Assembly: GCF_003790525.1 (NCBI RefSeq)
Contig: NZ_CP033635.1
From: Escherichia coli
Lineage (GTDB): Bacteria > Pseudomonadota > Gammaproteobacteria > Enterobacterales > Enterobacteriaceae
Length of the DNA: 64,000 nucleotides
Reading direction: 5' to 3' (one strand)
Positions 1 to 52,678 of the stretch are shown here, one piece after another. Position 1 is the first letter of the stretch. Every line of letters begins with the position of its first letter. The notes beneath the pieces were generated by a model. The model saw only the letters and a program-made list of their open reading frames with translations, had not been told where the DNA came from and did no database searches. The position numbers and the translations under genes are program-made.

Positions 1-118
1 CCGCGCGTTCCGATACCAGTTGATAGTTAATGATGAAAAAAAGACCAATAAATGACAGTGCTGCCAATAAAAATAAAATTATCAGCCTTATCTTTATCTT
101 TTCGTATAAACTCAGCAT
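1..118 (-). CDS. pdeI: c-di-GMP phosphodiesterase PdeI (YliE), N-terminal ~39 codons only; gene runs off the left edge
   Basis: Minus-strand translation from an ATG near 118 reads MLSLYEKIKIRLIILFLLAALSFIGLFF..., recognisable as the YliE N-terminus; position downstream of gsiD matches E. coli synteny. Not in ORF track (partial). Confidence 0.7.
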   Translation of the reverse strand, partial: MLSLYEKIKIRLIILFLLAALSFIGLFFIINYQLVSERA

Positions 119-294
119 GTTAATACATTTAACAAAATAACTGTCTGAACGCTGTGCCGCTGCAAAATAGTCCCTTGCTGCGGCTTTTTAACCAAATTAC
201 CCGATTCTACAAAATCAGCAGAAAGTTACAACACTTGCTTAGGGCAATAATTTCCTGTGAGGTGATTACCCTTTCAAGCAATATTCAAACGTAA

Positions 295-1206: not shown

Positions 1207-1208
1207 CC

Positions 1209-2129: not shown

Positions 2130-2146
2130 TCCACTCCCTGCGTTGC

Positions 2147-3685: not shown

Positions 3686-3704
3686 TTTATTCTCCGCCTG
3701 AATG

Positions 3705-25876: not shown

Positions 25877-25890
25877 TCCCCTCTGGGGAG
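25877..25890. repeat. left copy of island-flanking direct repeat (att core) tcccctctggggag
   Basis: Identical 14-mer recurs at 52665..52678. Confidence 0.75.
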
Positions 25891-26056: not shown

Positions 26057-27250
26057 ATGCCACTTACTGTTCGACAAATTGAGTCGGCTAAACCTGCTGA
26101 CAAGGATTACAAACTTTCTGACGGTCAGGGCCTTTATCTTCTTGTCAAAAAATCCGGTGCCCGTTACTGGAATCTGAAGTACCGGTTTGCCGGTAAGGAA
26201 AAGAAACTGGTGATTGGTGTCTATCCTGACATATCACTGGCTCAGGCTCGTCAGAAGCGGGATGAAGCACGTAAACTTCTGGCTGAAGGTAAAGATCCGT
26301 CGTATGAAAAACAGGCGCGAAAACTTGCCATCAGGGAAAGTATGGCCTGCACATTTCGCACCATTGCAGAGGAGCTGCTTACTCATATGGCACGTCGATG
26401 GACAACAGGTTACCAGGCAGACCAGCGTGCAAGACTTGAAAATCATGTTTTCCCTGCTCTTGGAAACCGTCCTGTGACCGGGATCCGCCCCATGGAAATA
26501 CTGAACGTCCTGAGGACTATAGAAGAACAGGGAAAACTTGAAGCACTGCGTAAAACACGCCAGCTCTGTGCGCAGGTTTTTGATTATGCCATAGCAACAG
26601 GGCGTGCAACCGTTAATCCGGCATCGACACTCAGCGGGGTACTGCTTCCTCCTGAAAAACAACAGCGCAGGACGCTTTCTGAAGAACAGATAGGAGCTTT
26701 CATGTATCAGATAACGGCTTCCGGAAATCTGATGTCGCTGGCAACGCGGATGCTGGTTCTGACCGCTGTTCGCACCGGAGAACTGCGACTGGCAACCTGG
26801 GACGAAATTAATTTCACGGAGGCCCTGTGGGTTATTCCGAAAGAAAGAATGAAAATGCGACGACCGCACGTTGTGCCGCTTTCACGGCAGGTACTGGCGT
26901 TACTGGAGGAGATAAAAACACGCACTGAATCGCGTAATTCCGCCTTTATTATTCCTGGTGCATTCAGAAAAGATCTCCCGCGAAACCGCAAGTGTATCAA
27001 TGAATTCCTTGAGCAGTCAGGCTGGCATGCCCTGACAACAGCCCACGGATTTCGTCATACCTTCAGCACCATTCTCCATGACCATGATTTCAGCTCAGCC
27101 TGGATTGAACTCCAGCTTGCTCATGTTGATAAAAACGTCATGCGTGGCACTTATAACCATGCGCAATATCTGGATGGACGTCGTGAAATGATGCAGTGGT
27201 ACGCTGATTACATTGATTCACTTATGGAGAAAAACGTAAAAACGAAATAA
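26057..27250 (+). CDS. tyrosine site-specific integrase, phage P4 / CP4-57 IntA type
   Basis: 397-aa ORF with P4-integrase-like N-terminus and C-terminal catalytic HGFRHTF ... HxxR ... Y motifs. Confidence 0.9.
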   Translation: MPLTVRQIESAKPADKDYKLSDGQGLYLLVKKSGARYWNLKYRFAGKEKKLVIGVYPDISLAQARQKRDEARKLLAEGKDPSYEKQARKLAIRESMACTFRTIAEELLTHMARRWTTGYQADQRARLENHVFPALGNRPVTGIRPMEILNVLRTIEEQGKLEALRKTRQLCAQVFDYAIATGRATVNPASTLSGVLLPPEKQQRRTLSEEQIGAFMYQITASGNLMSLATRMLVLTAVRTGELRLATWDEINFTEALWVIPKERMKMRRPHVVPLSRQVLALLEEIKTRTESRNSAFIIPGAFRKDLPRNRKCINEFLEQSGWHALTTAHGFRHTFSTILHDHDFSSAWIELQLAHVDKNVMRGTYNHAQYLDGRREMMQWYADYIDSLMEKNVKTK

Positions 27251-29716: not shown

Positions 29717-30373
29717 TTATAAATCATTATCAATCAAACTCAGGAATGTATCTCTGGCATAATTACCAACGATGTTGGTTGTTATCGCATCAAGACTACC
29801 ACCAACGATTCCTCCTACAACAGGAACAAACTTTGACATATTAATAACACCAGTAGCACCTGTTTTTGTAAGCAGTCTGAAACCGACTGCCTTATTTATC
29901 TTTACAATAATATCTTTACTAATACATCTAATTGCATTTGTTGTCAACTTTTGTCCTATCTGAATTCCTGCTTCCTTCAAAATATCTTTCGCAGCATTAC
30001 CTACAAGACAGGTATAAACAATAGTTCTGACTTTATCATCACGAATATCCTGGCCACACATGATCGCAATAGATGCAACCATCCTGACCTGAATGAAAAG
30101 GACACTTGAAATATTGGTCGGTATAGTTACTGGTAATGTAATAATTCCTCCAAGACCAGTAAGAAAACCTGATGTGGCTGACTTGGTATTTTGCCATCGA
30201 ATAAGGCTATTTATCTGTTCTTTTAAACTACTACCCGTTTTCAGATAACTTTCCGCAAGACTATGTGCCGTATCAATTCCTGGGATACCAATACCATCGA
30301 TGGATTTTTCATAAGCGTAATCCAGAAATTTTATGATTTTTGATGGCGTGAGAATATTTTCATTATCAGTCAT
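29717..30373 (-). CDS. hypothetical protein, possibly EcsC-family; glycine-rich hydrophobic segments
   Basis: ORF trimmed to first internal ATG (MTDNENIL); motifs TSGFLTGLGGIITLPVTIP and VPVVGGIVGG; AT-rich by eye; family assignment from memory only. Confidence 0.55.
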   Translation of the reverse strand: MTDNENILTPSKIIKFLDYAYEKSIDGIGIPGIDTAHSLAESYLKTGSSLKEQINSLIRWQNTKSATSGFLTGLGGIITLPVTIPTNISSVLFIQVRMVASIAIMCGQDIRDDKVRTIVYTCLVGNAAKDILKEAGIQIGQKLTTNAIRCISKDIIVKINKAVGFRLLTKTGATGVINMSKFVPVVGGIVGGSLDAITTNIVGNYARDTFLSLIDNDL

Positions 30374-30464
30374 ACAACAAAACACCTAAAAATTTCACGA
30401 TCACTTTCTAAAAACTATCTCCGACAGATATCGGAACACCAGTATTATCACCAATTAAATAATA

Positions 30465-35503: not shown

Positions 35504-36418
35504 ATGCACTCAATAAAAAAAGTAACCATGCTCCTGGGGTGCCTCGCCCTCACCTGCTCGATAGCATTTCAGGCGAGTGCAACTGAAAAATTCAAGGTCA
35601 TTACAACATTTACCATCATCGCAGATATGGCCAAAAACGTGGCTGGAGATGCTGCAGAAGTCTCATCCATAACCAGGCCCGGTGCAGAAATTCATGAGTA
35701 TCAGCCTACCCCTGGCGATATTAAACGTGCGCAGGGGGCACAACTGATTCTCGCCAACGGTATGAATCTGGAATTGTGGTTCCAGCGCTTTTACCAGCAT
35801 CTCAGTGGGGTTCCAGAAGTGATTGTCTCTTCGGGTGTGACGCCAGTAGGGATCACCGAAGGCCCCTACGAGGGAAAACCTAACCCTCATGCCTGGATGT
35901 CGCCAGATAATGCTTTGATTTACGTCGATAATATTCGTGATGCGTTGATAAAATACGATCCGGCAAATGCAAAAACATACCAACGTAATGCCGATACTTA
36001 TAAAGCCAAGATTACCCAAACCCTTGCCCCCCTGCGTAAGCAGATTGCTGAACTCCCTGAGAATAAAAGATGGATGGTCACCAGTGAAGGGGCTTTTTCT
36101 TATCTCGCACGCGATTTGGGGCTAAAAGAGCTTTATCTGTGGCCGATAAATGCCGATCAACAAGGAACACCCCAGCAGGTACGTAAAGTGGTTGATATAG
36201 TGAAGAAAAATAATATCCCAGCGGTATTTAGTGAGAGTACGGTTTCCGATAAACCAGCGCGTCAGGTTGCGCGTGAAACCGGCGCACACTACGGCGGTGT
36301 GCTCTATGTCGATTCCCTGAGCACAGAAAACGGCCCGGTACCTACGTATATCGACCTTCTGAAGGTTACTACCAGTACGCTGGTGCAGGGAATTAAAGCC
36401 GGGAAAAGGGAGAAGTAA
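35504..36418 (+). CDS. sitA: metal (Mn/Fe) ABC transporter periplasmic binding protein, SitA/YfeA/MntC (TroA) family
   Basis: 304-aa ORF with signal peptide and TroA-like metal-binding fold; Fur and MntR boxes upstream as in sitABCD/yfeABCD operons. Confidence 0.75.
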   Translation: MHSIKKVTMLLGCLALTCSIAFQASATEKFKVITTFTIIADMAKNVAGDAAEVSSITRPGAEIHEYQPTPGDIKRAQGAQLILANGMNLELWFQRFYQHLSGVPEVIVSSGVTPVGITEGPYEGKPNPHAWMSPDNALIYVDNIRDALIKYDPANAKTYQRNADTYKAKITQTLAPLRKQIAELPENKRWMVTSEGAFSYLARDLGLKELYLWPINADQQGTPQQVRKVVDIVKKNNIPAVFSESTVSDKPARQVARETGAHYGGVLYVDSLSTENGPVPTYIDLLKVTTSTLVQGIKAGKREK

Positions 36419-36552
36419 TGATGCAATCTGCGGGTATTGTCGTTAATGGCGTTACTGTCACCTGGCGAAACGGGCAGAAAGCACTGCGCGATGCATCCTT
36501 CACAGTACCAGGCGGATCTATTGCCGCTCTGCTTGGGGTAAACGGTTCCGGT
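36418..36552 (+). pseudogene. truncated metal ABC transporter ATPase (sitB-like), first ~45 codons only
   Basis: ATGA overlap with sitA stop; N-terminus typical of an ABC ATPase (VTVTWRNGQKALRDASFTVPGGSIAALLGVNGSG) breaks inside Walker A (GSGE in place of GSGKST); downstream sequence is unrelated. Confidence 0.7.
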
Positions 36553-36900
36553 GAAATCGTCTTGACACGTTTCTGGGCTCGTCATCAGCGGTTGTTGCGA
36601 ATGATCGCCGCCCTGCGATGGTTGATTTATTTTATTGCGCCCCGGCGTCTGCCTTGCCAGGTACCGGAGGCGGGCTCTGAAGGACTGAGTAGGGTGAGCG
36701 CGTCAGGCCGCGAAGTACTGACACGGGAGTTTGTGGCAGGCAGTGAAGTCCTGACCAGGGTAAGGGAGGCGCTGACGTGCAGGTCCTGACTGTCAGCCAG
36801 GCGCATGGTGACTGACTTTCTCAATAACCCGCTGTCAGGCGCTCAACGCCCGACAGCAGGCCATGGCCCGGTGTGCAAAGACCTGACGGCAGGTGTTGTG

Positions 36901-38684: not shown

Positions 38685-38918
38685 TGTTTATCTCTTCTGA
38701 ACCAGGTAACATTAACAGAACATGTTTCAGGATATCCGCGCAGTGCGGAACATTACGGCTCACCACTGTGACGGCGGATCATCGCCACCCAGTATCCGAC
38801 AGACCCCTTACTTTGTTCGTAAACATCCTTCCTGCCCCCCTGAATCTCCAGACAACCAATATCACTTAAATAAGTGATAGTCTTAATACTAGTTTTTAGA
38901 CTAGTCATTGGAGAACAG

Positions 38919-39284
38919 ATGATTGATGTCTTAGGGCCGGAGAAACGCAGACGGCGTACCACACAGGAAAAGATCGCAATTGTTCAGCAGAGTTTTGAAC
39001 CGGGAATGACGGTCTCCCTTGTAGCCCGGCAACACGGTGTGGCAGCCAGCCAGCTATTTCTCTGGCGCAAGCAATACCAGGAGGGAAGTCTTACTGCTGT
39101 GGCCGCAGGAGAACAGGTCGTTCCTGCCTCTGAACTTGCTGCTGCCATGAAGCAGATTAAAGAACTCCAGCGCCTGCTCGGCAAAAAAACGATGGAAAAT
39201 GAACTCCTCAAAGAAGCCGTTGAATATGGACGGGCAAAAAAGTGGATAGCGCACGCGCCCTTATTGCCCGGGGATGGGGAGTAA
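38919..39284 (+). CDS. insC: IS2 transposase OrfA (InsC)
   Basis: [56 protein letters not shown]...; ORF-track ORF trimmed to Met 16. Confidence 0.9.
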
Positions 39285-40147
39285 GCTTAGTCAGCCGTTG
39301 TCTCCGGGTGTCGCGTGCGCAGTTGCACGTCATTCTCAGACGAACCGATGACTGGATGGATGGCCGCCGCAGTCGTCACACTGATGATACGGATGTGCTT
39401 CTCCGTATACACCATGTTATCGGAGAGCTGCCCACGTATGGTTATCGTCGGGTATGGGCGCTGCTTCGCAGACAGGCAGAACTTGATGGTATGCCTGCGA
39501 TCAATGCCAAACGTGTTTACCGGATCATGCGCCAGAATGCGCTGTTGCTTGAGCGAAAACCTGCTGTACCGCCATCGAAACGGGCACATACAGGCAGAGT
39601 GGCTGTGAAAGAAAGTAATCAGCGATGGTGCTCTGACGGGTTCGAGTTCCGCTGTGATAACGGAGAAAAACTGCGAGTCACGTTCGCGCTGGACTGCTGT
39701 GACCGTGAGGCACTGCACTGGGCGGTCACTACGGGCGGCTTCAACAGTGAAACAGTACAGGACGTCATGCCAGGAGCGGTGGAACGCCGCTTCGGCAACG
39801 ATCTTCCGGCGTCTCCAGTAGAGTGGCTGACGGATAATGGTTCATGCTACCGGGCTAATGAAACACGGCAGTTTGCCCGGATGTTGGGGCTTGAACCGAA
39901 GAGCACGGCGGTGCGGAGTCCGGAGAGTAACGGCATAGCAGAGAGCTTCGTGAAAACGATAAAGCGTGACTACATCAGTATCATGCCTAAACCAGACGGG
40001 TTAACGGCAGCAAAGAACCTTGCAGAGGCGTTCGAGCATTATAACGAATGGCATCCGCATAGTGCACTGGGTTATCGCTCGCCACGGGAATATCTGCGGC
40101 AGCAGGCCAGTAATGGGTTAAGTGATAACAGGTGTCTGGAAATATAG
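39242..40147 (+). CDS. insD: IS2 transposase OrfB (InsD), DDE catalytic subunit
   Basis: 301-aa ORF overlapping insC in the -1 frame, as in IS3-family frameshift arrangement. Confidence 0.9.
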
Positions 40148-40291
40148 GGGCAAATCCACCTGAATCTGAGGCAGCACCTGGCACGGCTGGGACGGAAGTC
40201 GCTGTCGTTTTCAAAATCGGTGGAGCTGCATGACAAAGTCATCAGGCATTATCTGAACATAAAACACTATCAATAAGTTGGAGTCATTACC

Positions 40292-40441
40292 GTGTTCCCG
40301 ACAGACGACTCGGTGAAAAAAGTGGTGTGGCTGGCAATCCAGTCTGCGTCCCAGAAATGGACGATGCCGTTGAAGGACTGGCGAATGGCAATGAGCCGCT
40401 TTATTATCGAGTTCGGTGACCGCCTGGACGGTCACTTCTGA
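40292..40441 (+). pseudogene. IS256-family (mutator-type) transposase C-terminal remnant
   Basis: VFPTDDSVKKVVWLAIQSASQKWTMPLKDWRMAMSRFIIEFGDRLDGHF* matches the conserved C-terminal tail of IS256-family transposases; immediately right of IS2. Confidence 0.6.
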
Positions 40442-40473
40442 GAAAAGGCATTTACACAGAATCCTAAACAGGC

Positions 40474-41211
40474 TCATGTACAGCGCTGTACCGGGCAATG
40501 GGTAATACCGGTCACAACCGGTAACCCCAGAGACAATGCAACTGTTTTTAACGCAATATACTGGCCGGATGTATCACCCCGGGCAGCCTGAAAACACCTT
40601 TCCACCCGGCATTGTCCGTCAGCACTTATCACCCGCCATGTCTGTTGCAATAAATCCACCCGTTGCGAACATTCTTCATCAACCGTGGCACTGACCCGTG
40701 GATGGCAAATGCTCGTCTGGCTGAGCAGCAACAGGCATCGCATTGTTGCTCCTCCATGTTGTTCCCGCAACCAGCGTAATACCACCGGTGGTGCTGGACT
40801 GGCCGTGTGATTACGTTCAGTAATACGCTCGTGCACCTGTCGGTAAAAGGAAGTACAGAATGCATGAATCTGTTGTCCGTTGATGTTTCCTTCTGCCGAA
40901 TGGAGTGTGAAGTGGACGGCCAGCAGACGCGGCCAGTGATCCACCGCCTGCTGAATAAAACGCCGGATTTCCACCGGCTCTGAAAGTACGGTTTCGGTTA
41001 TTTGCACGATTTGATCCCCTTGAATGTTGCTGAACCGGTGTCGGTACGCAGGAAAGCACGCCGAGACCGGTACGATGCCTGTTACAGCGAAGAACGAGGA
41101 ATGACAGACGGGGGCAGCAGGTCGCCAGCACCAGGGACAGGGCTGATTTCCACAATACCAACGCTGGTATTTTGCACATTGCCAGCGTACCGGCATTACA
41201 ACACGTTTCAT
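40474..41211 (-). CDS. hypothetical protein, weakly YagK/YfjJ-like (third paralog)
   Basis: 259-aa ORF trimmed to Met 15; central segment RLLAVHFTLHSAEG... resembles the RVDLRFP-type region of the two adjacent YagK/YfjJ-like proteins; competing frames exist. Confidence 0.4.
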   Translation of the reverse strand: MKRVVMPVRWQCAKYQRWYCGNQPCPWCWRPAAPVCHSSFFAVTGIVPVSACFPAYRHRFSNIQGDQIVQITETVLSEPVEIRRFIQQAVDHWPRLLAVHFTLHSAEGNINGQQIHAFCTSFYRQVHERITERNHTASPAPPVVLRWLREQHGGATMRCLLLLSQTSICHPRVSATVDEECSQRVDLLQQTWRVISADGQCRVERCFQAARGDTSGQYIALKTVALSLGLPVVTGITHCPVQRCT

Positions 41212-41432
41212 GCTGCTGCCCCTCGTGATGCCTCGATTCGTTGCTGCATCCACTGCTCCACTTCACTTTTGTACCAGCGGCTGCTGCGCCCCAGTTTGAT
41301 GGGTTTAGGGAAATGGCCTTCACTGATCAGCTTGTAAAACCATTTGTCGGTCATACCAGTGAAGCTGGTGATGTAGTTCATGTCGATCAGGGGATCGTCG
41401 GCACGCAGCAATACGCTGTCGTGACCTGTCAT
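41208..41432 (-). CDS. alpA: AlpA-family (P4 Vis-like) transcriptional regulator
   Basis: Small ORF with FTGMTDKWFYKLISEGHFPKPIKLGRSSRWYKSEVEQWM, the AlpA/Vis HTH signature; start codon uncertain (Met 5 or Met 22). Confidence 0.7.
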   Translation of the reverse strand: MTGHDSVLLRADDPLIDMNYITSFTGMTDKWFYKLISEGHFPKPIKLGRSSRWYKSEVEQWMQQRIEASRGAAA

Positions 41433-41512
41433 TGAGGTCAACATGGTCAGAATGTCCTCTGTGAGATTTATGAATGTTGGGCAAATGCGGGTGAATCTGC
41501 TGAGCTGAGCTT

Positions 41513-42115
41513 TCAGAGCTGGCCTGCTACGGGATACCAGGGATTACCGGCGAGGTAACGGGCTTCCGGATCGCGCACACCACGACGATCGCGGGCGAAA
41601 TCACTGAACGCCCATATCAGCTCTTTGAGTCTCTCTTCGCAGTCCGGTGAACAACTGTCCAGCACCACATCCCGGGTTATCTGTTTCTGGTACGGTGCCG
41701 CTTCACCCGGTGAGGCGAAGCCCAGCACGTTGCTCCAGGCATCCAGAATCAGCCGATCCAGTTCAGGGCCGTCGAAATACTCCTGCCTGACGCACAGCAC
41801 CACGTGGTATTCCGGCTTTTCAGGATGACGTGTCAGGAGCCAGCAGAGGTCACGTCCGGGGGTTGCATTCATCAGGTCACTGACGGTTTCAATAAAGGCC
41901 ATACCGAACCAGGTCCTGCGGCTGCTGAAGGTATTATCGGGTTCCCACGGCAGACGAAGCAGGATACGTCGTATCCGGGAGCCGGACTGCTCACGCAGCG
42001 CACGGTCAAGAACGCCAATAACTTTGTTCTGATACGAGGGCCAGAAGGGTGCCATGCTGTCGTCGAAATAAGAGAAAGTATTCACAGGATATGCTCCGTT
42101 ATGCGCAGCCCACAA
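41513..42115 (-). CDS. YagK/YfjJ-family protein (inovirus Gp2-like domain)
   Basis: 200-aa ORF, TTG start; island-associated family typically next to alpA. Confidence 0.6.
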   Translation of the reverse strand: MWAAHNGAYPVNTFSYFDDSMAPFWPSYQNKVIGVLDRALREQSGSRIRRILLRLPWEPDNTFSSRRTWFGMAFIETVSDLMNATPGRDLCWLLTRHPEKPEYHVVLCVRQEYFDGPELDRLILDAWSNVLGFASPGEAAPYQKQITRDVVLDSCSPDCEERLKELIWAFSDFARDRRGVRDPEARYLAGNPWYPVAGQL

Positions 42116-42417
42116 CGCGTCCTGCCCGGGGATGGATGGGCTGACGGGTTACAGGCTGCGGATGAGGTTGATGGAACAGGTGAAGAACCGACGCTGAGCG
42201 GGAATATCAGGGAAGAACATTCAGGGTGAATGAACTCCGTTGACTTCGGTTCACATCATTAAGCAGGGCGGTAAGGTTTTACCGACAGATTGTTTCCGGG
42301 TGCGGAAGCAGATACCGCTGCTGACTTCATGACGGGTTATCAGAATACGGGATAAGGGCATTGGCTGACTCTCTTACCGTGGCATAAGTTCAGGTACCGG
42401 ATACCGTTTTACCGACC

Positions 42418-43149
42418 TCACCTGCCATCCAGCAAACGCCCCGGCCCACGGCTGCAACCATAATTACGCTGACCGGAACCATTATGCTGCTTCGTTTTAT
42501 TTTTCACGAGATAACTGGCTCTGTTCCTGGCTTTCTGCATCGCTGCCACATCACCACGCTTGATCCAGAGAACAGCGGCTTCACCCGGCTTTTTTTCTGA
42601 AGCCTTCCTGGTATCAGAACATCCACCCGACAAAGGCGTGTCATCGGAAGAAGGGCGAGCATCAGACGATGCTGGTTTACGAAAAGGCTTCCACCTGGAA
42701 AAATGGACCAGGCCATCGCCTTGCCAGGGCTCAAGATGCAGAGCGCTGCACCATGCCTCCTGGATCATCGCCGCCAGCGAAGACGGTTCGCTGAAATCCC
42801 CGAGCGAGCACCAGGTATCTTTGTTGAGCAGCAATATCACGTGATAATGTTTCCTGTTTTCTTCCTCTCCGAACTCCCGGCACCAGAAATAACGCAGGCT
42901 GGTTGCATGCACACGCTGACTGGCACGTCGCTTATGCTGCTGGTAAGCCTGGATTTTGGCTTTCAGGGATTCGAAAAAACGAGAAATCACCGCTGAATCC
43001 GGATCGGGATCCATGATGGTGACAGGCATATACTCAGGGAAACGTAAATCCACCCGGATTAACGAGACGGCACGGTGCTGCGACAGGGCACTGTCGAGAA
43101 GGCTGTCAAAACGGGATAACCAGTAAGCATTGTGTATTGGTTGATTCAT
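42418..43149 (-). CDS. YagK/YfjJ-family protein (inovirus Gp2-like domain)
   Basis: 243-aa ORF; ...SLIRVDLRFPEY... motif; paralog of 41513..42115. Confidence 0.65.
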   Translation of the reverse strand: MNQPIHNAYWLSRFDSLLDSALSQHRAVSLIRVDLRFPEYMPVTIMDPDPDSAVISRFFESLKAKIQAYQQHKRRASQRVHATSLRYFWCREFGEEENRKHYHVILLLNKDTWCSLGDFSEPSSLAAMIQEAWCSALHLEPWQGDGLVHFSRWKPFRKPASSDARPSSDDTPLSGGCSDTRKASEKKPGEAAVLWIKRGDVAAMQKARNRASYLVKNKTKQHNGSGQRNYGCSRGPGRLLDGR

Positions 43150-44722
43150 GATGAGAGATCTCCGTTGATTTGGATTGACTTCACATCATTAATCACCGCG
43201 GTAAAACTTTACGGCATCATGTCATTAAGCAATGCTACAACTCTCTGATTAAGAGTGATTGAAACGGAACAAACCATCCCGGAACGAAAAGATAATCCTG
43301 CACACAGCAGCAAAACACGCAACAACAGCATGAATGGATTTAAAAACGACATGGACGACGAGAAAAGCCTGAAGGGAAAAGGATCCACAGAACATTCGAA
43401 CAAAACACCAGAAACGCAACCAGAACGCTTCCTGGCAATGCAAATCAACAACAACACCAAAACCTACAGCTTAATCACACAACTCAATCACGAATGCGAA
43501 TGACACGTTTAAAACCTGTTTACAGATAACGTCGTAACAAGATCATCCCCATCAGAATCGATTTTCTTATCTTGAGTATGTTACTTTTCAACATACCTAA
43601 ACGATTAACCACCGATAACGTAAATCTCATCTGAATCAAAACACCAAAACCAATCATCACGTTTTCGACAGAAGAAAAACACCACATCATGACAAAAAGA
43701 ATGACCTTACACGGAAAAGAAAAACGTCAGGAATCGTTAATGCATACCTCAATCTGATTGTTATCAAAACATCCAGAAAGTCGTTTAACAGAATCGTCGT
43801 AAGCACATCGAAAAGAACGTCAGATCACCTCAGGAAAGTTCGGGTTGATTTAGCGTAAAGATACTTTTCTCAGCTTAACGTCGAAACACAAACCAAAAAC
43901 CACAAACAACCAAAGCTCAGGAAAGGTTAAACGTCACATCAGTAAAATCGAATAGCAGATTGATTGCTTAAACAGGAAGGATTGTTTTACAGCAGCATTA
44001 AACTGATTTAGTTAACGTAAAATCAGAACTGACAGGTTTACTAACTTGGATGTGTATCAGTTCAAAAATGTGTACAGCAATGCGTAATGAAACACATTTA
44101 AAGGAGATTAATGGGAAAAGTGTGTAAATGCGTAAACATGCACTAATGAATCACTGAAGGAATACATACAAAACGACTTAATGAAAACATAAAAGGACCT
44201 AATGGAAAAGGTGTATATAATACCATATCCGACATTCTCAACATCTTAAGACATCCATGCAGACTGAATGTTGGTTTCAGTTTTTCACGGTAAGCATGAA
44301 TCTTTTCTGTTCAAAAGCAGAGCAGATTTACTCTGGAATTATTTTTCTTACTCCGTATTCTGTACAGCAAAAACTTGTGCTAACTTTACAGCAAACCATC
44401 ATAATCAGCGTCTGTAGTCCCATCGCTTTACCCCATGAAAGTGAATCCATATGATGCGAGAGAGATAAGTCATCGTATCCGGTAAACACTGCTAACCATA
44501 ACATAAGATCATTCAGTCAGTTTTATCTCTGAACTGACGATTATGGCATGCTCATTTATATGGCTCACAGAGGAGTGTTATTATCTGTAAGCTTTAATCA
44601 TCAAATCACATGACCATACCAAACTGGCGCTATATCAGCTCATTTGACACCCCTTCCCTTTAGATTTCTTTATGTGTTTTTTGTCGATAATTAAAATGTA
44701 ATATGAATTTAATATTTTTACA

Positions 44723-45946
44723 TCATAAACACCATTTAAAACCATTATCCTGAACATCATACAACAATATATTTTTACTAAAGCATGAATTGTATATTTC
44801 TATTAATTCAGGAAAATTATCAGGATTCACCTTTAAATTCACCTGAATGTTACGCCTAATTTCACCCAGCAGTTTTTCATGCGTGAATTTTATTATTTCT
44901 TTATCATAATCTATAAATTCACACATGTTTTTTATGAATTCAAACCCTTTTCCTGTATACAGTTTGATGAATGCCACAAGAGCAAACATTTCAAGATGCA
45001 GCCATAATGCCACGTGAGTTTTTCGCAAAGTATAAAAAATTGAATTCACCTCTTTTTTACTTATTGCTCTTTTGTACTGTGAGTGTGCCAGATTCAGTAG
45101 TGGCAATTCTCTCTCGATAAATGAAAGTGAAAAAGGCGGGTAAATTGATGTCGGAAATATTTTAGGTCTTATGATATTTTCTATTTCCACCATAAATCTA
45201 TCCATAGAAAGAAAATCATTTTCTTTTTTTATTCTGGTATAGAGACCGCCTTTATTTCTTACTGCGACTTTTTTTCGTGCTACCCCCCCCAACACTTCCT
45301 CTAATTGTTTATTTATCTTCGTATCATTAAATACAACCATTCTTCTTATCATCCTGGGAAGGATGATAATATCAGAGCTTGAATCACTTGAACGGTAATT
45401 ATTATTGATCCATGCAACTTCAAGTTGAAGTATCGGAACATTAAATTCTCTGGGGTTAATAACTCTCTGATATTGTTTTTTGTATGCGTTTTTATTAAGA
45501 TATTCTCTGCTGTAGAGAAACTTATAGCAATATAATCTGACAATATCCTTTATGTAAGATTTAAATGAGTCACCTGTAACAGATATATTTTTTCTGCTCA
45601 GTAACTCCTGTGTATTGAGCCATTCCCGTGACCGGAGTACTCCCTTATGAAGACTTTTTCTTACTTGCATTGAACTGCGCAATTGATGTAATATTTTTGC
45701 GTCCTCAACAATTCTCTTTCCCGTTTGATTTCTTGCAGCATCTATTACTCTGTCAAATATCTCCCGGTCCAGACTTTTGTCATATTTACTGATTATACGA
45801 CAAATATTCCTGACCCGACGGTTCTCTTTATTTCGTTTCCATAACTGATAATGATCATCACATAACCTCAGGGCATTTGCCTCATCAAATTCTGAAACAG
45901 GATTGCTGCATTTTTTATTCCGACAGATACCTTTGTTTTTAGCCAT
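44723..45946 (-). CDS. hypothetical protein (407 aa), AT-rich orphan with Cys-rich N-terminus
   Basis: Long uninterrupted ORF in strongly AT-rich DNA; N-terminal CRNKKCSNP...CDDHY suggests a metal-binding motif; no family recognised. Confidence 0.6.
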   Translation of the reverse strand: MAKNKGICRNKKCSNPVSEFDEANALRLCDDHYQLWKRNKENRRVRNICRIISKYDKSLDREIFDRVIDAARNQTGKRIVEDAKILHQLRSSMQVRKSLHKGVLRSREWLNTQELLSRKNISVTGDSFKSYIKDIVRLYCYKFLYSREYLNKNAYKKQYQRVINPREFNVPILQLEVAWINNNYRSSDSSSDIIILPRMIRRMVVFNDTKINKQLEEVLGGVARKKVAVRNKGGLYTRIKKENDFLSMDRFMVEIENIIRPKIFPTSIYPPFSLSFIERELPLLNLAHSQYKRAISKKEVNSIFYTLRKTHVALWLHLEMFALVAFIKLYTGKGFEFIKNMCEFIDYDKEIIKFTHEKLLGEIRRNIQVNLKVNPDNFPELIEIYNSCFSKNILLYDVQDNGFKWCL

Positions 45947-46046: not shown

Positions 46047-46931
46047 ATGTCATTCAGCCATTCTTCCCTTTCCGCACACGTAAAATCACATCTGACCTTT
46101 CTTCCTGAAGAAATACGCCAGAAAATCCTTGAATATCTTCACAGCGTCATTCAGTACGAACCCGTGATTGGCATTATGGGTAAATCCGGTGCCGGAAAAA
46201 GCAGCCTGTGCAATGCCATTTTTCAGTCCCGTGTCTGCGCCACGCATCCACTGAACGGCTGCACCCGTCAGGCTCATCGTCTTACCTTTCAGCCTGGTGA
46301 ACGCAGAATGACGCTCGTCGATCTGCCCGGCACTGGCGAAACACCACAGCATGATCAGGAATACCGGGCACTTTACCGTCAGTTACTGCCCGAACTGGAT
46401 CTGATTATCTGGATCCTGCGTGCTGATGAACGTGCGTATGCTGCCGACATCGCCATGCATCAGTTTTTACTGAATGAAGGTGCCGATCCCTCGCGTTTTC
46501 TGTTTGTTCTCAGCCATGCTGATCGCATCCACCCGGCTGAAGAATGGAACAGCCAGAGCAACACGCCATCCCGTCAGCAGGAACTCTCACTGGCAACAGT
46601 AACAGCCCGGGTGGCAACCCTGTTCCCTTCATCATTTCCGGTACTCCCCATAGCTGCCCCTGCAGGCTGGAATCTTCCGGCATTTGTGTCACTGATGATC
46701 CACGCCCTGCCACCACAGGCAACCAGCACGGTTTATTCGCATATCCGGAATGAAAAGCGCACTGCGCAGGATCAGCAACACGCACAGCAGGCTTTTGGTG
46801 ACGCCATCGGCCAGAGCTTTGACGCGGCCATTGCCCGGTTCAGCTTTCCGGCCTGGATGCTGCAGCTTCTGCGTAAAGCCCGTGATCGCATTATCCGCCT
46901 GCTGGTCACACTGTGGGATCGCCTGTTCTGA
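46047..46931 (+). CDS. YfjP/YeeP/YkfA-family GTPase (CP4-type island protein)
   Basis: 294-aa ORF with P-loop GKSGAGKSS and DLPG switch motif. Confidence 0.8.
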   Translation: MSFSHSSLSAHVKSHLTFLPEEIRQKILEYLHSVIQYEPVIGIMGKSGAGKSSLCNAIFQSRVCATHPLNGCTRQAHRLTFQPGERRMTLVDLPGTGETPQHDQEYRALYRQLLPELDLIIWILRADERAYAADIAMHQFLLNEGADPSRFLFVLSHADRIHPAEEWNSQSNTPSRQQELSLATVTARVATLFPSSFPVLPIAAPAGWNLPAFVSLMIHALPPQATSTVYSHIRNEKRTAQDQQHAQQAFGDAIGQSFDAAIARFSFPAWMLQLLRKARDRIIRLLVTLWDRLF

Positions 46932-47116
46932 ATTTCCCCGCTTTTTGACCGGCACAGACGATGACCAGGGAACGCATTTCCGGCGGCTTTACCACAATGC
47001 TGAAGGGCTTTTGGTAAACCTCATTCATTTCATCCATCAGGCAGCGTCTTCTCCGGGAGATGCGGCTTTTTCATTGATTACGTCAGTCAGTCTTAACCAC
47101 TGATAAGGAGCAAAGT

Positions 47117-47935
47117 ATGCGATTAGCCAGTCGTTTTGGTTATGCGAACCAGATACGCCGTGACCGTCCGCTGACACATGAAGAGCTGATGCACCATGTG
47201 CCCGGGATTTTCGGGGAGGATAAGCACACCTCCCGGAGCCGGAACTATACATACATCCCCACCATCACCGTGCTGGAAAGCCTGCAACGGGAAGGCTTTC
47301 AGCCGTTCTTTGCCTGCCAGACCCGCGTGCGTGACCCGGGACGCCGGGGATACACAAAGCACATGCTGCGTCTGCGCCGTGACGGGGAGATAAACGGACA
47401 GCATGTCCCTGAAATCATCCTGCTCAACTCCCATGACGGCACCTCCAGCTACCAGATGCTGCCGGGTTACTTCCGGTTCGTGTGTCAGAACGGATGTGTC
47501 TGTGGTCAGTCTCTCGGAGAGGTGCGTGTCCCGCACCGGGGAGACGTGGTGGACAGGGTCATTGAAGGGGCTTACGAGGTGGTGGGCGTGTTTGACCGGA
47601 TAGAGGAAAAGCGTGATGCCATGCAGTCACTGATTTTACCACCACCGGCTCGTCAGGCGCTGGCACAGGCCGCCCTGACTTACCGTTATGGTGACGAACA
47701 TCAGCCCGTCACCACCGCCGACATTCTGACACCACGACGCCGGGAGGATTACGGTCAGGACCTGTGGAGTGCTTATCAGACCATCCAGGAGAATATGCTG
47801 AAAGGCGGGATTTCCGGTCGCAGTGCAAAAGGAAAACGTATCCATACCCGGGCCATTCACAGCATTGATACCGATATAAAACTCAACCGCGCATTGTGGG
47901 TGATGGCAGAAACGCTGCTGGAGAGCATGCGCTGA
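47117..47935 (+). CDS. DUF932-family protein (YfjQ-like)
   Basis: 272-aa ORF in the canonical position after the GTPase. Confidence 0.65.
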   Translation: MRLASRFGYANQIRRDRPLTHEELMHHVPGIFGEDKHTSRSRNYTYIPTITVLESLQREGFQPFFACQTRVRDPGRRGYTKHMLRLRRDGEINGQHVPEIILLNSHDGTSSYQMLPGYFRFVCQNGCVCGQSLGEVRVPHRGDVVDRVIEGAYEVVGVFDRIEEKRDAMQSLILPPPARQALAQAALTYRYGDEHQPVTTADILTPRRREDYGQDLWSAYQTIQENMLKGGISGRSAKGKRIHTRAIHSIDTDIKLNRALWVMAETLLESMR

Positions 47936-48016
47936 TGCCGTTTCCCTGAGTGAGGGAATCATTCAGCTTTCGTTCCTGAAAAACACACATTTATTTGTTA
48001 TTTAAGGAGTTATCTC

Positions 48017-48457
48017 ATGAAAACCGTTTCTCAGAATACCCCCACAATTTATTCAGCTACAACACCAGAGAATAATCCGCCTCAGTTGGTTGCCAGCCTC
48101 GTCCCTGATGAACAGCGCATCAGCTTCTGGCCGCAGCATTTTGGCCTCATTCCACAGTGGGTGACCCTGGAGCCCCGTGTCTTCGGCTGGATGGACCGTC
48201 TGTGCGAAGACTACTGCGGTGGTATCTGGAATCTGTACACCCTGAACAACGGCGGCGCATTTATGGCCCCCGAACCGGATGATGATGATGACGAAACATG
48301 GGTACTGTTCAATGCCATGAACGGTAACCGCGCTGAAATGAGCCCGGAAGCCGCCGGCATTGCTGCCTGTCTGATGACGTACAGTCATCATGCCTGTCGT
48401 ACGGAGTGTTATGCCATGACGGTTCATTATTACCGTCTGCGGGATTACGCCCTGTAG
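48017..48457 (+). CDS. antirestriction protein, KlcA/ArdB family (YfjX/YeeR-like)
   Basis: 146-aa ORF with acidic stretch (PEPDDDDDE) and pattern typical of CP4-island antirestriction proteins. Confidence 0.7.
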   Translation: MKTVSQNTPTIYSATTPENNPPQLVASLVPDEQRISFWPQHFGLIPQWVTLEPRVFGWMDRLCEDYCGGIWNLYTLNNGGAFMAPEPDDDDDETWVLFNAMNGNRAEMSPEAAGIAACLMTYSHHACRTECYAMTVHYYRLRDYAL

Positions 48458-48511
48458 CATCCGGAATGCAGCGCCATTATGCGCATCATTGACTGAAAGG
48501 GGGCCGGAACA

Positions 48512-48988
48512 ATGCAACAGATTTCCTTTCTGCCCGGAGAAATGACAACCAGAGAGCGCAGCCTCATTCAGCGGGCCCTGAAAGCCCTGGACCGCCATCT
48601 TCATGAACCCGGCGTGGCCTTCACCTCCACCCGTGCGGCACGGGAATGGCTGATTCTGAACATGGCGGGACTGGAGCGGGAAGAGTTCCGGGTGCTGTAC
48701 CTGAACAACCAGAATCAGCTGATTGCCGGTGAAACCCTCTTCACCGGCACCATCAACCGCACGGAAGTCCATCCCCGGGAGGTGGTTAAACGCGCCCTGT
48801 ACCACAATGCCGCTGCCGTGGTGCTGGCACACAATCATCCGTCCGGTGAAGTCACACCCGGTAAGGCAGACCGGCTTATCACTGAACGTCTGGTACAGGC
48901 ACTGGCCCTGGTGGATATCCGGGTGCCGGACCATCTGATAATCGGTGGCAGCCGGGTGTTCTCCTTTGCCGAACACGGTCTGCTTTAA
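48512..48988 (+). CDS. RadC-like JAB/MPN domain protein (YfjY/YeeS/YkfG-like)
   Basis: 158-aa ORF with JAMM-like HNHPSGEVTPGKAD motif. Confidence 0.8.
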   Translation: MQQISFLPGEMTTRERSLIQRALKALDRHLHEPGVAFTSTRAAREWLILNMAGLEREEFRVLYLNNQNQLIAGETLFTGTINRTEVHPREVVKRALYHNAAAVVLAHNHPSGEVTPGKADRLITERLVQALALVDIRVPDHLIIGGSRVFSFAEHGLL

Positions 48989-49077
48989 TCCGTCACCGTC
49001 ACAACCACCTTCATATTGTCACTTCAGTTTCTCTTTCTCAGCTGTTTCTCACTTTCACATTCAGGAGGACTGTTCTC

Positions 49078-49299
49078 ATGAAAATCGTCACCCGTGGTGA
49101 AGCCATGCGCGTTCACCGTCAGTATCCGTCATCCCGTCTTTTTCCGTTCTGCACCGGTAAGTACCGCTGGCACGGCGGCACTGAGGCGTATACCGGTCGT
49201 GAAGTGCAGGATATCCCCGGCGTACTGGCCGTGTTTGCCGAACGCCGCAAGGACAGTTTTGGCCCGTATGTCCGGCTGATGAGCGTCACCCTGAACTGA
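49078..49299 (+). CDS. DUF987-family small protein (YeeT/YpjJ-like)
   Basis: 73-aa ORF, MKIVTRGEAMRVHRQYP...; canonical position upstream of the antitoxin. Confidence 0.65.
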   Translation: MKIVTRGEAMRVHRQYPSSRLFPFCTGKYRWHGGTEAYTGREVQDIPGVLAVFAERRKDSFGPYVRLMSVTLN

Positions 49300-49309
49300 G
49301 TCAGTGGAG

Positions 49310-49960
49310 ATGCTGATGAGCAGCATTATCACCACCACCGTGTATACGCTGAATGAACTTTCCGCCACAGCACGGGAAAAAGCCCGCGGCTGGTACCGTC
49401 AGCATCATGCTGACAGCCGCTGGTATGAAAACGTGTATGAGGACTTCAGGGCGGTCTGTGAGATTGTCGGGATTGTCCTCCGCCAGCGTGTTATCCGGCT
49501 CAGCAGCGGCAGGTTTATGGAAGAGCCGTGCATCTGGTTCAGCGGATTCTGCAGCCAGGGGGACGGAGCCTGTTTTGAAGGGCGCTGGCACTGGCAGCCG
49601 GCAACAGCCAGGCGAGTCCGGGAATATGCCCCGCAGGACCGTGAGCTTCATCGTATCACGGATGCCCTGCAGGCGGTGCAGAAGCATAACTTCCGGCAGT
49701 TACAGGCTGAAATCCGTCACCGGGGACGCTACTGCCATCCGTACAGCATGGATATCACCGTCACCCGGGACAGCCCGACCGGACAGGCAATGACAGCCGG
49801 CGCGGAAACCGTTGTCTGTGACGCCCTGCGGGACCTGGCCTTCTGGTTATACAGTCAACTGGAAAACGAGTACGACTGGCTGACCTCAGATGACGCCGTG
49901 GATGAGGCGCTTCTCATCAACGGATACACCTTCACCGAAGCCGGTCTGCGCGCCGGCTGA
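49310..49960 (+). CDS. hypothetical protein (~216 aa)
   Basis: ORF in a GC-rich segment between DUF987 and the antitoxin; start ambiguous (GTG 49304, ATG 49310 or 49316); no family recognised. Confidence 0.5.
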   Translation: MLMSSIITTTVYTLNELSATAREKARGWYRQHHADSRWYENVYEDFRAVCEIVGIVLRQRVIRLSSGRFMEEPCIWFSGFCSQGDGACFEGRWHWQPATARRVREYAPQDRELHRITDALQAVQKHNFRQLQAEIRHRGRYCHPYSMDITVTRDSPTGQAMTAGAETVVCDALRDLAFWLYSQLENEYDWLTSDDAVDEALLINGYTFTEAGLRAG

Positions 49961-50010
49961 CCCGTCATTGTTAAAACCATTCTTAACCGATTATCAGTGA
50001 GGACTTTATC

Positions 50011-50388
50011 ATGTCAGACACACTCACCGGGACAACGCATCCCGACGACAACAGCGACCGCCCCTGGTGGGGGCTGCCCTGCACCGTGACGCCCTGTTTC
50101 GGTGCCCGTCTGGTGCAGGAGGGTAACCGCCTGCATTACCTTGCAGACCGCGCCGGCATCAGAGGCCGGTTCAGCGACGCAGATGCGTACCACCCGGACC
50201 AGGCCTTTCCGCTGCTGATGAAACAGCTGGAACTCATGCTCACCAGTGGTGAACTCAGTCCCCGCCATCAGCATACCGTCACACTGTATGCGAAAGGGCT
50301 GACCTGCGAAGCCGACACCCTCGGCAGTTGTGGTTACGTGTATATCGCCATTTATCCGACACCGGCAACACCCGGAACCACCGCATAA
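50011..50388 (+). CDS. type IV antitoxin, CbeA/YeeU/YfjZ family
   Basis: 125-aa ORF; ...[20 protein letters not shown]...[19 protein letters not shown] matches the YeeU family. Confidence 0.85.
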
Positions 50389-50434
50389 CCCCGGACAGCA
50401 CTTCTTTATCACCACCTGTTACAGAGTACTTAAG

Positions 50435-50809
50435 ATGAAAACATTCCCCGACACACATGTACGGGCAACATCGCGCTGCCCGTCTCCGGTTGAAATCTGG
50501 CAGACACTGCTCACCCGGTTGCTGGACCAGCACTACGGCCTCACGCTGAATGACACACCGTTCGCCGATGAACGTGTGATTGAACAGCATATTGAGGCAG
50601 GTATTTCACTGTGTGATGCGGTGAACTTTCTCGTGGAAAAATACGCACTGGTGCGTACCGACCAGCCGGGATTCAGTGCCTGCACCCGCTCTCAGTTAAT
50701 CAACAGCATTGATATCCTCCGGGCCCGCCGGGCAACCGGCCTGATGACCCGCAGCCACTACCGAATGGTGAGCAACATCACCCTGGGTAAACACTGTGAG
50801 GTGAAATGA
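50435..50809 (+). CDS. type IV toxin, CbtA/YeeV/YpjF family (cytoskeleton-binding)
   Basis: Trimmed to [48 protein letters not shown]..., near-identical in pattern to CbtA. Confidence 0.85.
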
Positions 50810-51297
50810 TGAAACTGTCCCTGACGCTGGAAGCAGACAGCGTTAACGTCCGGGCACTGAACATGGGGCGCATTGTCGCTGACGTCGATGGTGTTAATCT
50901 CGCTGAACTGATTAACGTGGTCTGCGATAACGGCTGTTCCCTTCGTGTTGTTGATGAATCTGACCGGACCTCAGCAGACTGCATGCCACCATTTACTGCC
51001 CTTACCGGCATACGCTGCAGTACCGCACATATCACGGAACAGGACAATGCCTGGCTGTACTCGCTGTCGCATCAGACGAATGACAACGGCGAATCAGAAT
51101 GGATTCATTTTACAGGCAGCGGATATCTGTTACGTACTGATGCGTGGTCGTACCCGGCTCTGCGGCTTAAACGCCTGGGGCTGTCAAAAACCTTCCGCCG
51201 TCTGGTTGTCACACTTATCCGGCGTTATGGCGTCAGTCTCATTCATCTGGATGCCGGCGCTGAATGTCTGCCGGGTTTACCCACTTTCGACTGGTAA
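50806..51297 (+). CDS. hypothetical protein downstream of toxin (YeeW-position protein)
   Basis: 163-aa ORF, ATGA overlap with the toxin stop. Confidence 0.5.
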
Positions 51298-51316
51298 CCG
51301 GGACAAAAGACACCGT

Positions 51317-51514
51317 ATGAAATCATTAACCACAGAAACGGCACCGGATATTCTGATTGCGTGGCTGCAGGACAATATCGACTGCGGCTCCGGCATTATC
51401 TTCGACAACGATGAGGATAAAACGGATTCGGCAGCACTGCTGCCCTGTATCGAACAGGCCAGAGCGGATATCCGCACCCTGCGCCACCTGCAGCTTCAGC
51501 ACCAGAACCGGTGA
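51317..51514 (+). CDS. small hypothetical protein (possibly DUF957-type)
   Basis: 65-aa reading frame from internal ATG of ORF 50945..51514 (MKSLTTETAPDILIAWLQDNIDCG...). Confidence 0.4.
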   Translation: MKSLTTETAPDILIAWLQDNIDCGSGIIFDNDEDKTDSAALLPCIEQARADIRTLRHLQLQHQNR

Positions 51515-51609
51515 GTCTCACTCATCATCTCACTCACCACGATTCATTCCCCTGACGCCAGTCCGAATACGGCTGGCGTTTTCATTTATAAACCACAAGG
51601 AAAAATGTA

Positions 51610-52458
51610 ATGTCTGATATCACAATCCCTTATCCGGAAGCGGTCAACGGACATACGGACGTTATCTGCTCCACAGATATCCGGCACGTTGTGACGGTAC
51701 GGAATGAAGCACTGCAACAAACCGAAAGGGTTATCCGGCAACTGGCAGAAATCTCAGCAATGACAGAAAGCATAGGCGGTAAAACGGCGCGGGACTGGGC
51801 CGTGAAACAGGATTTTCGCTGTGGCTGCTGGCTGATGGAAAAACCGGAAACCGCAATGAAAGCCATCACCCGGAACCTTGACCGTGAAATCTGGCGTGAC
51901 CTGATGCAACGCTCCGGGATGCTGAGTCTGATGGATGCACAGGCGCGTGATGAATGGTACCGTTCACAGGAGGACGATAATTTCCCGGAAATCAGCGAAG
52001 CGAATATCCTGAGCACGTCTGAACAACTGCACCGTAACAGGGATGAAATGGCTGAACGGGGCGTCATCAACCTCTTCAGGGGACTGAGCCGGACGCAAAA
52101 CAGCGGGTCACCCTGTAAATTCGGCAGCAAGATTATCCTCAACAACCTGGTGAAATGGGACTGGTGGGGATTTGGTCTGAACCATGGCCCGCAGGCCGGG
52201 CGGCTTGCCGACCTGGAAAGAATGTTGTATCTGTTCAGTGGTAAACCCATACCCGATTACAGGGACAATATCCTCATTCGTCTGGATGAGCACATCCGGT
52301 CCGTTCAGGGTGAAGCGTGTTATGAAGATGAGATGTTCAGCATCAGATACTTCAGGAAAGGCTCTGCGCATATCACGTTTAAACACCCGGAACTGGTGGA
52401 GAAGCTGAATGCTGTTCTGGCGAAACATTATTCGGTAAAGTTCCATTCTTCTGTATAA
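51610..52458 (+). CDS. hypothetical protein (possibly DUF4942-type), last island gene
   Basis: 282-aa ORF; same strand as the downstream glnP. Confidence 0.55.
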   Translation: MSDITIPYPEAVNGHTDVICSTDIRHVVTVRNEALQQTERVIRQLAEISAMTESIGGKTARDWAVKQDFRCGCWLMEKPETAMKAITRNLDREIWRDLMQRSGMLSLMDAQARDEWYRSQEDDNFPEISEANILSTSEQLHRNRDEMAERGVINLFRGLSRTQNSGSPCKFGSKIILNNLVKWDWWGFGLNHGPQAGRLADLERMLYLFSGKPIPDYRDNILIRLDEHIRSVQGEACYEDEMFSIRYFRKGSAHITFKHPELVEKLNAVLAKHYSVKFHSSV

Positions 52459-52664: not shown

Positions 52665-52678
52665 TCCCCTCTGGGGAG
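52665..52678. repeat. right copy of island-flanking direct repeat (att core) tcccctctggggag
   Basis: Identical to 25877..25890. Confidence 0.75.

Follow-up and report, generated by a model that had tools for sequence, protein, structure and literature searches.

A 64,000-nucleotide stretch of Escherichia coli DNA (contig NZ_CP033635.1, RefSeq assembly GCF_003790525.1; hereafter the window) carries a genomic island in which a gene for an AlpA-type regulator and genes resembling the YagK/YfjJ family lie on the minus strand, at 40474-43149, far from the island's plus-strand integrase gene. This layout raises the question of how the segment came to lie there. An initial annotation had proposed an inversion or a fusion of two elements, together with an expansion of YagK/YfjJ-like paralogs. 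We present here an analysis of the segment and its relatives, which leads to a different answer. The segment is probably a conserved distal backbone module, in its normal orientation, of an island of ~26.8 kb that has a P4-type integrase and is inserted between glnH and glnP; the module encodes a homolog of rolling-circle replication initiator (Rep) proteins, two degenerate relatives of that protein, and AlpA.

Four co-oriented open reading frames (ORFs) occupy the minus strand from 40474 to 43149, as the initial annotation had placed them. They are transcribed in the order G1 (42418-43149), G2 (41513-42082), alpA (41208-41444), and G3 (40474-41007), and they form an operon-like array. The alpA gene is thus the third of the four and not, as had been described, the first gene, followed by up to three paralogs. 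Scans for sigma-70 promoters and for terminators gave scores at or below chance. The integrase gene lies at 26057-27250 on the plus strand, which confirms the reported separation of ~14 kb and the opposite strands. The intervening DNA had been described as rich in insertion sequences (IS); it is mostly cargo, with the IS material concentrated at 36.8-40.5 kb.

The borders of the island were set by comparison with the empty site of K-12. It occupies positions 25891-52664, inside the glnH-glnP intergenic hairpin. A 14-bp direct repeat, TCCCCTCTGGGGAG, borders it on either side; the window contains only two copies of this repeat, versus 0 expected. The left copy (attL core, 25877-25890, plus strand) lies in the hairpin downstream of glnH, and the right copy (attR core, 52665-52678, plus strand) lies upstream of glnP. 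The insertion therefore splits the glnHPQ operon and involves no tRNA; there is no tRNA in the window. The P4-type tyrosine integrase at the left end contains the domains Arm-DNA-bind_3, Phage_int_M, and Phage_integrase and matches NF007246 with an E value of 3.6e-80. The right-end block (46047-52458, plus strand) encodes, by Pfam, a YeeP/YfjP-like GTPase and DUF932, antirestriction, RadC, CbeA/CbtA, DUF5983, and DUF4942 proteins. This block is oriented divergently from the module, and the same block is annotated in relatives. Other E. coli islands at glnH-glnP carry different cargo (pap fimbriae; sucrose/alpha-glucoside genes) with integrases that are 91 to 100% identical, and two complete E. 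coli genomes match the window at 100% identity over glnH, the integrase gene, and a TPR gene.

The arrangement of the module recurs in islands at this site and elsewhere. Strain 23CRST013 has a glnH-glnP island with identical ends and sugar-utilization cargo. Its module matches that of the window in gene order and orientation, and neither the module nor the DNA linking it to its neighbors contains an IS. In strain 2/0, a pap island at glnH reads int(+), TPR(+), pap genes, alpA(-), G2(-), G1(-); no IS lies between integrase and module, and G1 is a pseudogene. In islands by setC/yicL and by ynjB, too, the module and the GTPase block point away from each other. The 3.3-kb module is present in 282 complete genomes, and alpA, G2, G1, the spacer upstream of G1, and the GTPase gene are contiguous in 264 complete E. 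coli genomes. Contigs from distant relatives (L010 to L013) show the order YagK, AlpA, two zinc-ribbon genes, UCP030791, DUF2913; the integrase closest to the module lies ~6 kb beyond it, on the other strand. A Klebsiella IncFIB/HI1B plasmid (pRWS291.s3) has the same module. Like the window, these contigs and the plasmid carry YagK, AlpA, and UCP030791 genes in the same order and on the same strand, with divergent upstream cargo and the integrase opposite. Unlike the window, they lack G2, they contain two full zinc-ribbon genes in place of a remnant of ~40 codons, and their YagK proteins are without the low-complexity insertion of ~40 residues found in G1. Identity between the distant module and the window is 38% for YagK, 75% for AlpA, and 26% for UCP030791. 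The orientation of the module is thus the normal and ancestral one: it runs against the integrase and diverges from the GTPase-to-DUF4942 block.

A similar gene order has been described in Shigella flexneri, in which the YeeP-like orf46 of the SRL pathogenicity island comes a few ORFs after orf39 (YfjJ-like) and orf41 (Vis/AlpA-like) (PMC6980539). SRL orf38 to orf46 and the RefSeq-annotated E. coli blocks resemble the window in that YfjJ-like and AlpA/Vis genes lie far from the integrase and before the GTPase block. The SRL island differs in having an Hha-like gene in the position of G2 and, in addition, an integrase-proximal YfjI/Gp2 set (PMC6980539); the likeness drawn here is one of gene order.

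The idea of a displaced module comes from islands such as CP4-57 of K-12, in which intA, yfjH, alpA, yfjI, and yfjJ are adjacent and alpA, yfjI, and yfjJ, in that order, are co-oriented with intA. If the module had once lain beside the integrase in this way, an IS-mediated inversion or a fusion of two islands might have moved it, and the IS2 and IS1414 remnant at one module border could be a trace of the event. A Salmonella contig with int, AlpA, and two tandem Gp2 genes, all co-oriented, is a further example of the integrase-proximal layout. CP4-57 shares with the window the AlpA and YfjJ families and a right end with GTPase, DUF932, antirestriction, and RadC genes. However, the window contains no homolog of the DUF3987 gene yfjI or of yfjH (tblastn E > 0.4), its AlpA and G1 are no more than remote relatives of their CP4-57 counterparts, and its alpA and integrase genes lie on different strands, 14 kb apart, so that it does not qualify as a CP4-57-type, integrase-proximal arrangement. 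Nor does it carry the marks of an inversion product. No inverted repeats occur near 27.3 and 43.2 kb in the window, the putative borders have no paired IS copies, and the integrase, alpA, and the pair of att sites each occur only once in the island. The proposal also fails by the standard that the initial annotation itself had set, that related islands show the same arrangement: all relatives of this module share its order, those free of IS in and next to the module, whether at glnH-glnP or at other sites, are laid out identically, and in distant relatives, too, the integrase is on the opposite strand. We consider a displacement extremely unlikely. The premise that the regulatory module normally sits beside the integrase holds to the extent that this layout exists in CP4-57; it is one of two common layouts, a second configuration and not the ancestor of that in the window. 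The sole local events are the insertions of IS1414 and then IS2 at the 3′ end of G3.

The three YagK/YfjJ-like genes were compared with each other and with protein families. Pairwise alignment of the proteins by BLASTP was weak (G1-G2, E = 0.002; G1-G3, E = 0.21; G2-G3, a match of only 7 residues with E = 44); aligned regions are at most ~24% identical. NCBIfam returned no family for G1, G2, or G3, and PADLOC gave no defense-system match for any of the three.

G1 (243 amino acids) belongs to the YagK/YfjJ family, also named the inovirus Gp2 family. It matches Pfam YagK_YfjJ_C (PF11726) with an E value of 1.9e-37 and 129.2 bits against a cutoff of 25.8, over profile positions 2 to 170 of 170, and its identity to K-12 YfjJ is 30% (E = 4.5e-26). 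G1 is also a homolog of HUH rolling-circle Rep proteins. It scores above the cutoff of Pfam REP_ORF2-G2P (2.3e-7), matches four PHROG replication-initiation families (5e-5 to 6e-4), and is similar to Microviridae VP4 (tblastn, 8e-5 and 4e-4; pairwise BLASTP, 1e-11). Its Rep motifs are intact: motif I is IRVDLRFP, motif II is HYHVILLL, and motif III is YLVK, which supplies the catalytic Tyr of YxxK. In the alignment with VP4, IRVDLRFP lies opposite the motif I sequence LTLTYD and HYHVILL lies opposite the motif II sequence HYHLIVF, with the HYH of G1 aligned to the HYH of VP4. In an alignment of the G1 family spanning Escherichia, Rouxiella, Enterobacter, Brenneria, Serratia, and Providencia, Y213 and K216 of motif III are invariant, and H101 and H103 of motif II are kept in all sequences but one, which is frameshifted. 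G1 is thus a catalytically plausible HUH protein and a candidate nickase. Motifs I, II (HUH), and III (YxxK) stand in the same order in the Reps of single-stranded DNA phages, represented by Microviridae VP4 and Pfam REP_ORF2-G2P. Unlike the Reps of these phages, G1 is encoded in a chromosomal island that has no phage structural genes and no identified origin. One further record with a YagK-like gene, OR844780.1 (a 4.5-kb "Escherichia phage" entry, positions 1 to 4468, UNVERIFIED_ORG, coverage 3.7), was considered as a minimal mobile element and rejected; it is low-coverage DNA of a bacterial island, in which IS66 genes accompany a fragment of an autotransporter gene, and not a phage genome.

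G2 (189 amino acids, minus strand) starts at a GTG, and its frame is open back to a TTG at 42115. No Pfam family matched it at E ≤ 0.01, and PF11726 gave only 11.6 bits (E = 0.26), below its curated cutoff. Similarity to the YagK/YfjJ proteins was found in several comparisons, each weak, yet concordant and colinear: BLASTP with K-12 YfjJ (8e-5), hhalign of the G2 family against the G1 family (65%, E = 6e-5), and hhalign of G2 against an expanded YagK alignment (probability, 86%; E = 4.7e-6; 117 columns). Members of the G2 family that touch YagK_YfjJ_C number 3 of 11, and these do so weakly (best, 0.014). By these comparisons, G2 is a weak but real YagK/YfjJ paralog, a divergent relative that is not a PF11726 member by the Pfam rule. 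Its HUH motif is degenerate, with EYH replacing HYH throughout the family, and the candidate Tyr of motif III (in RYLAG) is not conserved, being His in the 23CRST013 allele. Homologs of G2 were found in E. coli alone, and the gene is an old, E. coli-specific duplicate.

G3 (177 amino acids, minus strand) also starts at a GTG. It is probably a UCP030791-family (PF27752) protein; PF27752 is carried, as a precomputed assignment, by all listed G3 relatives, from 71% to 98 to 100% identical, and by distant ones, and RefSeq names its ortholog "UCP030791 family putative phage-derived protein." The Pfam-A scans matched no family to G3 at E ≤ 0.01 and gave no PF27752 hit, this profile apparently being missing from the Pfam-A copy scanned. 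G3 and 17 close relatives had no match to YagK_YfjJ_C at E ≤ 1, below the family cutoff, and hhalign of a shallow G3 alignment gave 4% (E = 0.0096). A deep alignment was then built by a profile search of 1.84 billion representatives, which returned 69 relatives. Compared with the G1 family by hhalign, it gave a probability of 98.3% (E = 1.3e-14, 149 columns), and 11 of 24 distant family members matched YagK_YfjJ_C (best, 5.5e-10). Together, these two results indicate that G3 is a real, divergent third YagK/YfjJ relative. In the G3 family, neither of the two HUH positions holds a His, and where motif III aligns there is no conserved Tyr.

The third copy had been read as a frame from 40474 to 41211. 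This frame is truly open, and its ATG at 41211 overlaps the alpA stop codon as ATGA, and the suspected superfamily homology is borne out. The conserved domain, however, begins at the GTG at 41007, as RefSeq annotates relatives, since the 68 codons upstream (41008-41211, minus strand) are read in different frames in other alleles. These codons contain a degenerate zinc-ribbon remnant (CxxC...CxxC). In the 23CRST013 allele, the stretch upstream of G3 is a separate ORF of 42 codons with CANC...CPWC; in the window (41085-41211, minus strand), the second Cys has become Tyr and the small ORF is fused in frame to G3. Where the window holds this remnant, distant modules have two genes for 140-amino-acid Zn_ribbon_11/DUF7828 proteins. 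By tblastn, the window contains no full zinc-ribbon (DUF7828) gene; the short Cys-motif remnant was recognized by eye and by comparison of alleles.

The other end of G3 has been damaged. The last 5 codons were lost to an IS1414 remnant, and the stop codon lies at the junction. The remnant (40292-40475) is a 184-bp 3′ piece that abuts G3 and is 100% identical to the IS1414 end in L002; it is itself cut by a complete IS2 (38832-40159, plus strand; 97% identical over 1,328 bp to annotated IS2), which lies between an Rpn gene and the remnant. In an IS-free relative, the Rpn gene directly follows G3. Between the window (40476-40508) and strain TUM1886 (L002, 15150-15180), the point at which the IS1414 end meets G3 differs by 33 bp. 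This offset implies that the same end of the gene received two insertions independently or that a deletion occurred there next to the IS. G3 is also mosaic. From G1 through G2 and alpA to about codon 40 of G3, the DNA of the window and that of 23CRST013 are 93% identical; megablast similarity then stops (window 40477-40886 versus L009 15137-15646), and the 23CRST013 G3 resembles P0305, a sequence 55% identical to the window G3. This pattern suggests recombination inside the gene.

Each of the three genes has its own orthologs in hundreds to thousands of genomes, and G1, G2, and G3 are ancient, separately conserved subfamilies of the YagK/YfjJ superfamily. The count of two clear copies and a possible third is therefore correct in that all three fall in the superfamily, and needs revision in that only G1 is clear by Pfam. 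The copies did not arise by an expansion in this island; the subfamilies are old, at most 24% identical, and each conserved separately. The resulting picture is one catalytically plausible HUH protein and two degenerate relatives.

Noncoding features upstream of G1 and G2 are also conserved. An element of ~50 nucleotides occurs in two copies on the minus strand: copy 1 (43160-43214) ends in GGAG 10 nucleotides before the G1 ATG, and copy 2 (42235-42284) lies ~150 nucleotides before the G2 start. Copy 1 forms a direct repeat with 42250-42282, and the exact 13-mer TTAATGATGTGAA occurs at only two sites in the window, one in each copy. The pattern of the element is C[CG]GTAAA..TTACCG..TG.TTAATGATGTGAA..TCAACGGAG. 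No related E. coli island examined lacks it 5′ of G1 and G2; it is recognizable 5′ of the 38%-identical YagK gene in L011 and is far better conserved than the G1 and G2 proteins (24% identical). The presence of the same element 5′ of both genes indicates that the tandem duplication, an old one, extended into the 5′ region. Folding gave no significant hairpin in the element, and it contains no good sigma-70 match. It is the best candidate for a cis-acting site. Beyond copy 1, a noncoding AT-rich stretch of 1.5 kb (43215-44722), a candidate regulatory or silenced region, separates G1 from the next gene. Its GC content is 0.33 to 0.41, its plus strand is A-rich (AT skew, +0.29), and it is conserved in 23CRST013. 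It matches no Rfam family and contains no convincing iterons or tandem repeats.

The alpA gene encodes a 78-amino-acid winged-helix protein of the AlpA/Vis family, a candidate recombination directionality factor (RDF) and activator. It matches Pfam Phage_AlpA (PF05930) with an E value of 2e-10 (40.8 bits; cutoff, 21) and the PHROG family "excisionase and transcriptional regulator" at 6e-10, and its counterpart in the distant L011 module is the one with which it shares 75% identity. No second AlpA-like gene was found in the window by tblastn. The Hef protein of the Yersinia high-pathogenicity island is an RDF encoded far from its integrase. In the island ROD21, the RDF SEN1998 binds both att regions and, by locus-tag number, is far from the integrase SEN1970 (PMC8844411). 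ROD21 resembles the window in having an AlpA/Vis-like RDF well away from the integrase gene, and differs in that it belongs to another island family for which no YagK/YfjJ genes are reported (the text of PMC8844411 does not contain "Gp2"). In Pseudomonas tmRNA islands, AlpA and a Gp2-like gene lie at the end far from intY (10.1101/2024.08.29.610337). XisF4 of the filamentous prophage Pf4 promotes excision, binds and activates the promoter of the replication initiator, and is silenced by H-NS-family proteins (PMC7379572). The pairing of XisF4 with the initiator PA0727 is similar in that an excisionase-type winged-helix protein accompanies a replication initiator in an integrated element. Pf4, however, is a true phage, and the phage records retrieved by tblastn with G1, three in number, included none of a Pf phage.

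By analogy with AlpA, Rox, Hef, SEN1998, and XisF4, the AlpA protein of this island may act as its RDF, as a transcriptional activator, or as both. G1 would nick a specific site on the excised circle and so start rolling-circle replication or transfer, while G2 and G3 would be noncatalytic DNA-binding accessories or regulators. The AT-rich 1.5-kb spacer could, as in Pf4, be a silenced control region, and this region and the ~50-nucleotide element may be control or target sites.

How far G1 should be read as an enzyme is the point on which explanations of the module diverge. Integrative elements of the pSAM2 type use a rolling-circle Rep, and integrative mobilizable elements have Rep-like relaxases. 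If G1 is likened to these, G1-type YagK/YfjJ proteins in general would be active HUH nickases that replicate or mobilize excised CP4-like islands. The ~50-nucleotide element or the AT-rich 1.5 kb would then be a nick or operator site, the antirestriction/RadC/DUF932 block would act like the leading region of a plasmid, and the catalytically dead G2 and G3 could be specificity or regulatory subunits. We regard such a role as an active nickase, for G1 in this island as for proteins of its type, as tentative and, on balance, unlikely. At the other extreme, none of the three proteins may be an enzyme; all could be DNA-binding regulators or nucleoid-associated factors, controlling, for example, alpA, the integrase, or the neighboring block, with the motifs of G1 serving for DNA binding only. 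The conservation of G2 and G3 despite the loss of catalytic residues fits such a role, as do the operator-like element before G1 and G2 and the lack of an origin or oriT signature. CP4-like islands are, moreover, generally regarded as cryptic. Yet the HYH of G1 is near-invariant and the Tyr and Lys of YxxK are invariant from Escherichia to Providencia, which is hard to explain without catalysis, and the order of its motifs matches that of Microviridae VP4. A purely regulatory set of proteins is judged about as unlikely as an active nickase.

Decay offers a third explanation, in which G2 and G3 would be pseudogene-like, functionless, and hitchhiking on the island. The truncation of G3 by an IS in the window, the G1 pseudogene in strain 2/0, and the mosaic G3 alleles, whose starts are called inconsistently, all point in this direction. 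The ORFs, however, are intact in clusters of hundreds to thousands of sequences, the synteny extends across genera at 26 to 38% protein identity, and the UCP030791 family, with 69 representatives at 50% clustering, has conserved motifs. Decaying junk is accordingly a very improbable account of the module.

The preferred reading, a conserved distal module with one Rep homolog, two degenerate relatives, and AlpA, has several observations to set against it. For G2, homology support is limited to E values of 1e-4 to 1e-6, and AlphaFold2 models from shallow alignments were too poor to give structural confirmation of the fold (predicted local distance difference test scores of 46 for G2 and 40 for G3). 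A PDB sequence search with the G1-family profile found no solved relative. Literature on yfjJ and yagK consists of listings and an iModulon name, with no mechanism or experiment on any YagK/YfjJ protein. Origin-like iterons, a nick-site hairpin, or an oriT were not identified, the AlpA of the window has no BLAST-level similarity to K-12 AlpA, and the island is IS-damaged and may have lost its mobility.

Other features of the island were noted. Between the AT-rich spacer and the GTPase gene, an orphan ORF of 407 amino acids (44723-45946, minus strand; GC content, ~0.34) has no Pfam, PADLOC, or PHROG match, and its NCBIfam scores are far below cutoff. In other islands, the slot between G1 and the GTPase gene is filled by other genes, for example, one for a restriction endonuclease, so that it looks like a variable cargo hotspot. 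Nearer the integrase, an EcsC-family protein (29717-30385, minus strand) matches the PADLOC candidate defense family PDC-S29 (6e-86). At 35504-36789, a gene for a SitA-like periplasmic metal-binding protein (304 amino acids) is followed by a SitB-like ORF, both judged from their translations; the latter breaks off into IS66-related sequence at ~36.6 to 37.2 kb.

As a rearrangement, the locus matters little, since the proposed event never occurred. The module was already known as a common backbone block of E. coli and Shigella islands, annotated by RefSeq, and the present copy is an ordinary one whose end has been damaged by IS1414 and IS2. For annotators, three points follow: the "hypothetical" G2 and the UCP030791-family G3 are, by the comparisons above, degenerate relatives of the HUH Rep-like YagK/YfjJ family; it is normal for alpA to lie at a distance from the integrase gene and on the opposite strand, and such a layout does not signal a rearrangement; and P4-type integrases recurrently use the glnH-glnP hairpin, which is not a tRNA site, for integration. 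If G1-type proteins, with their HUH motif intact, were active nickases, the long-standing "cryptic prophage" islands of E. coli and Shigella would gain a mechanism of transfer or replication.

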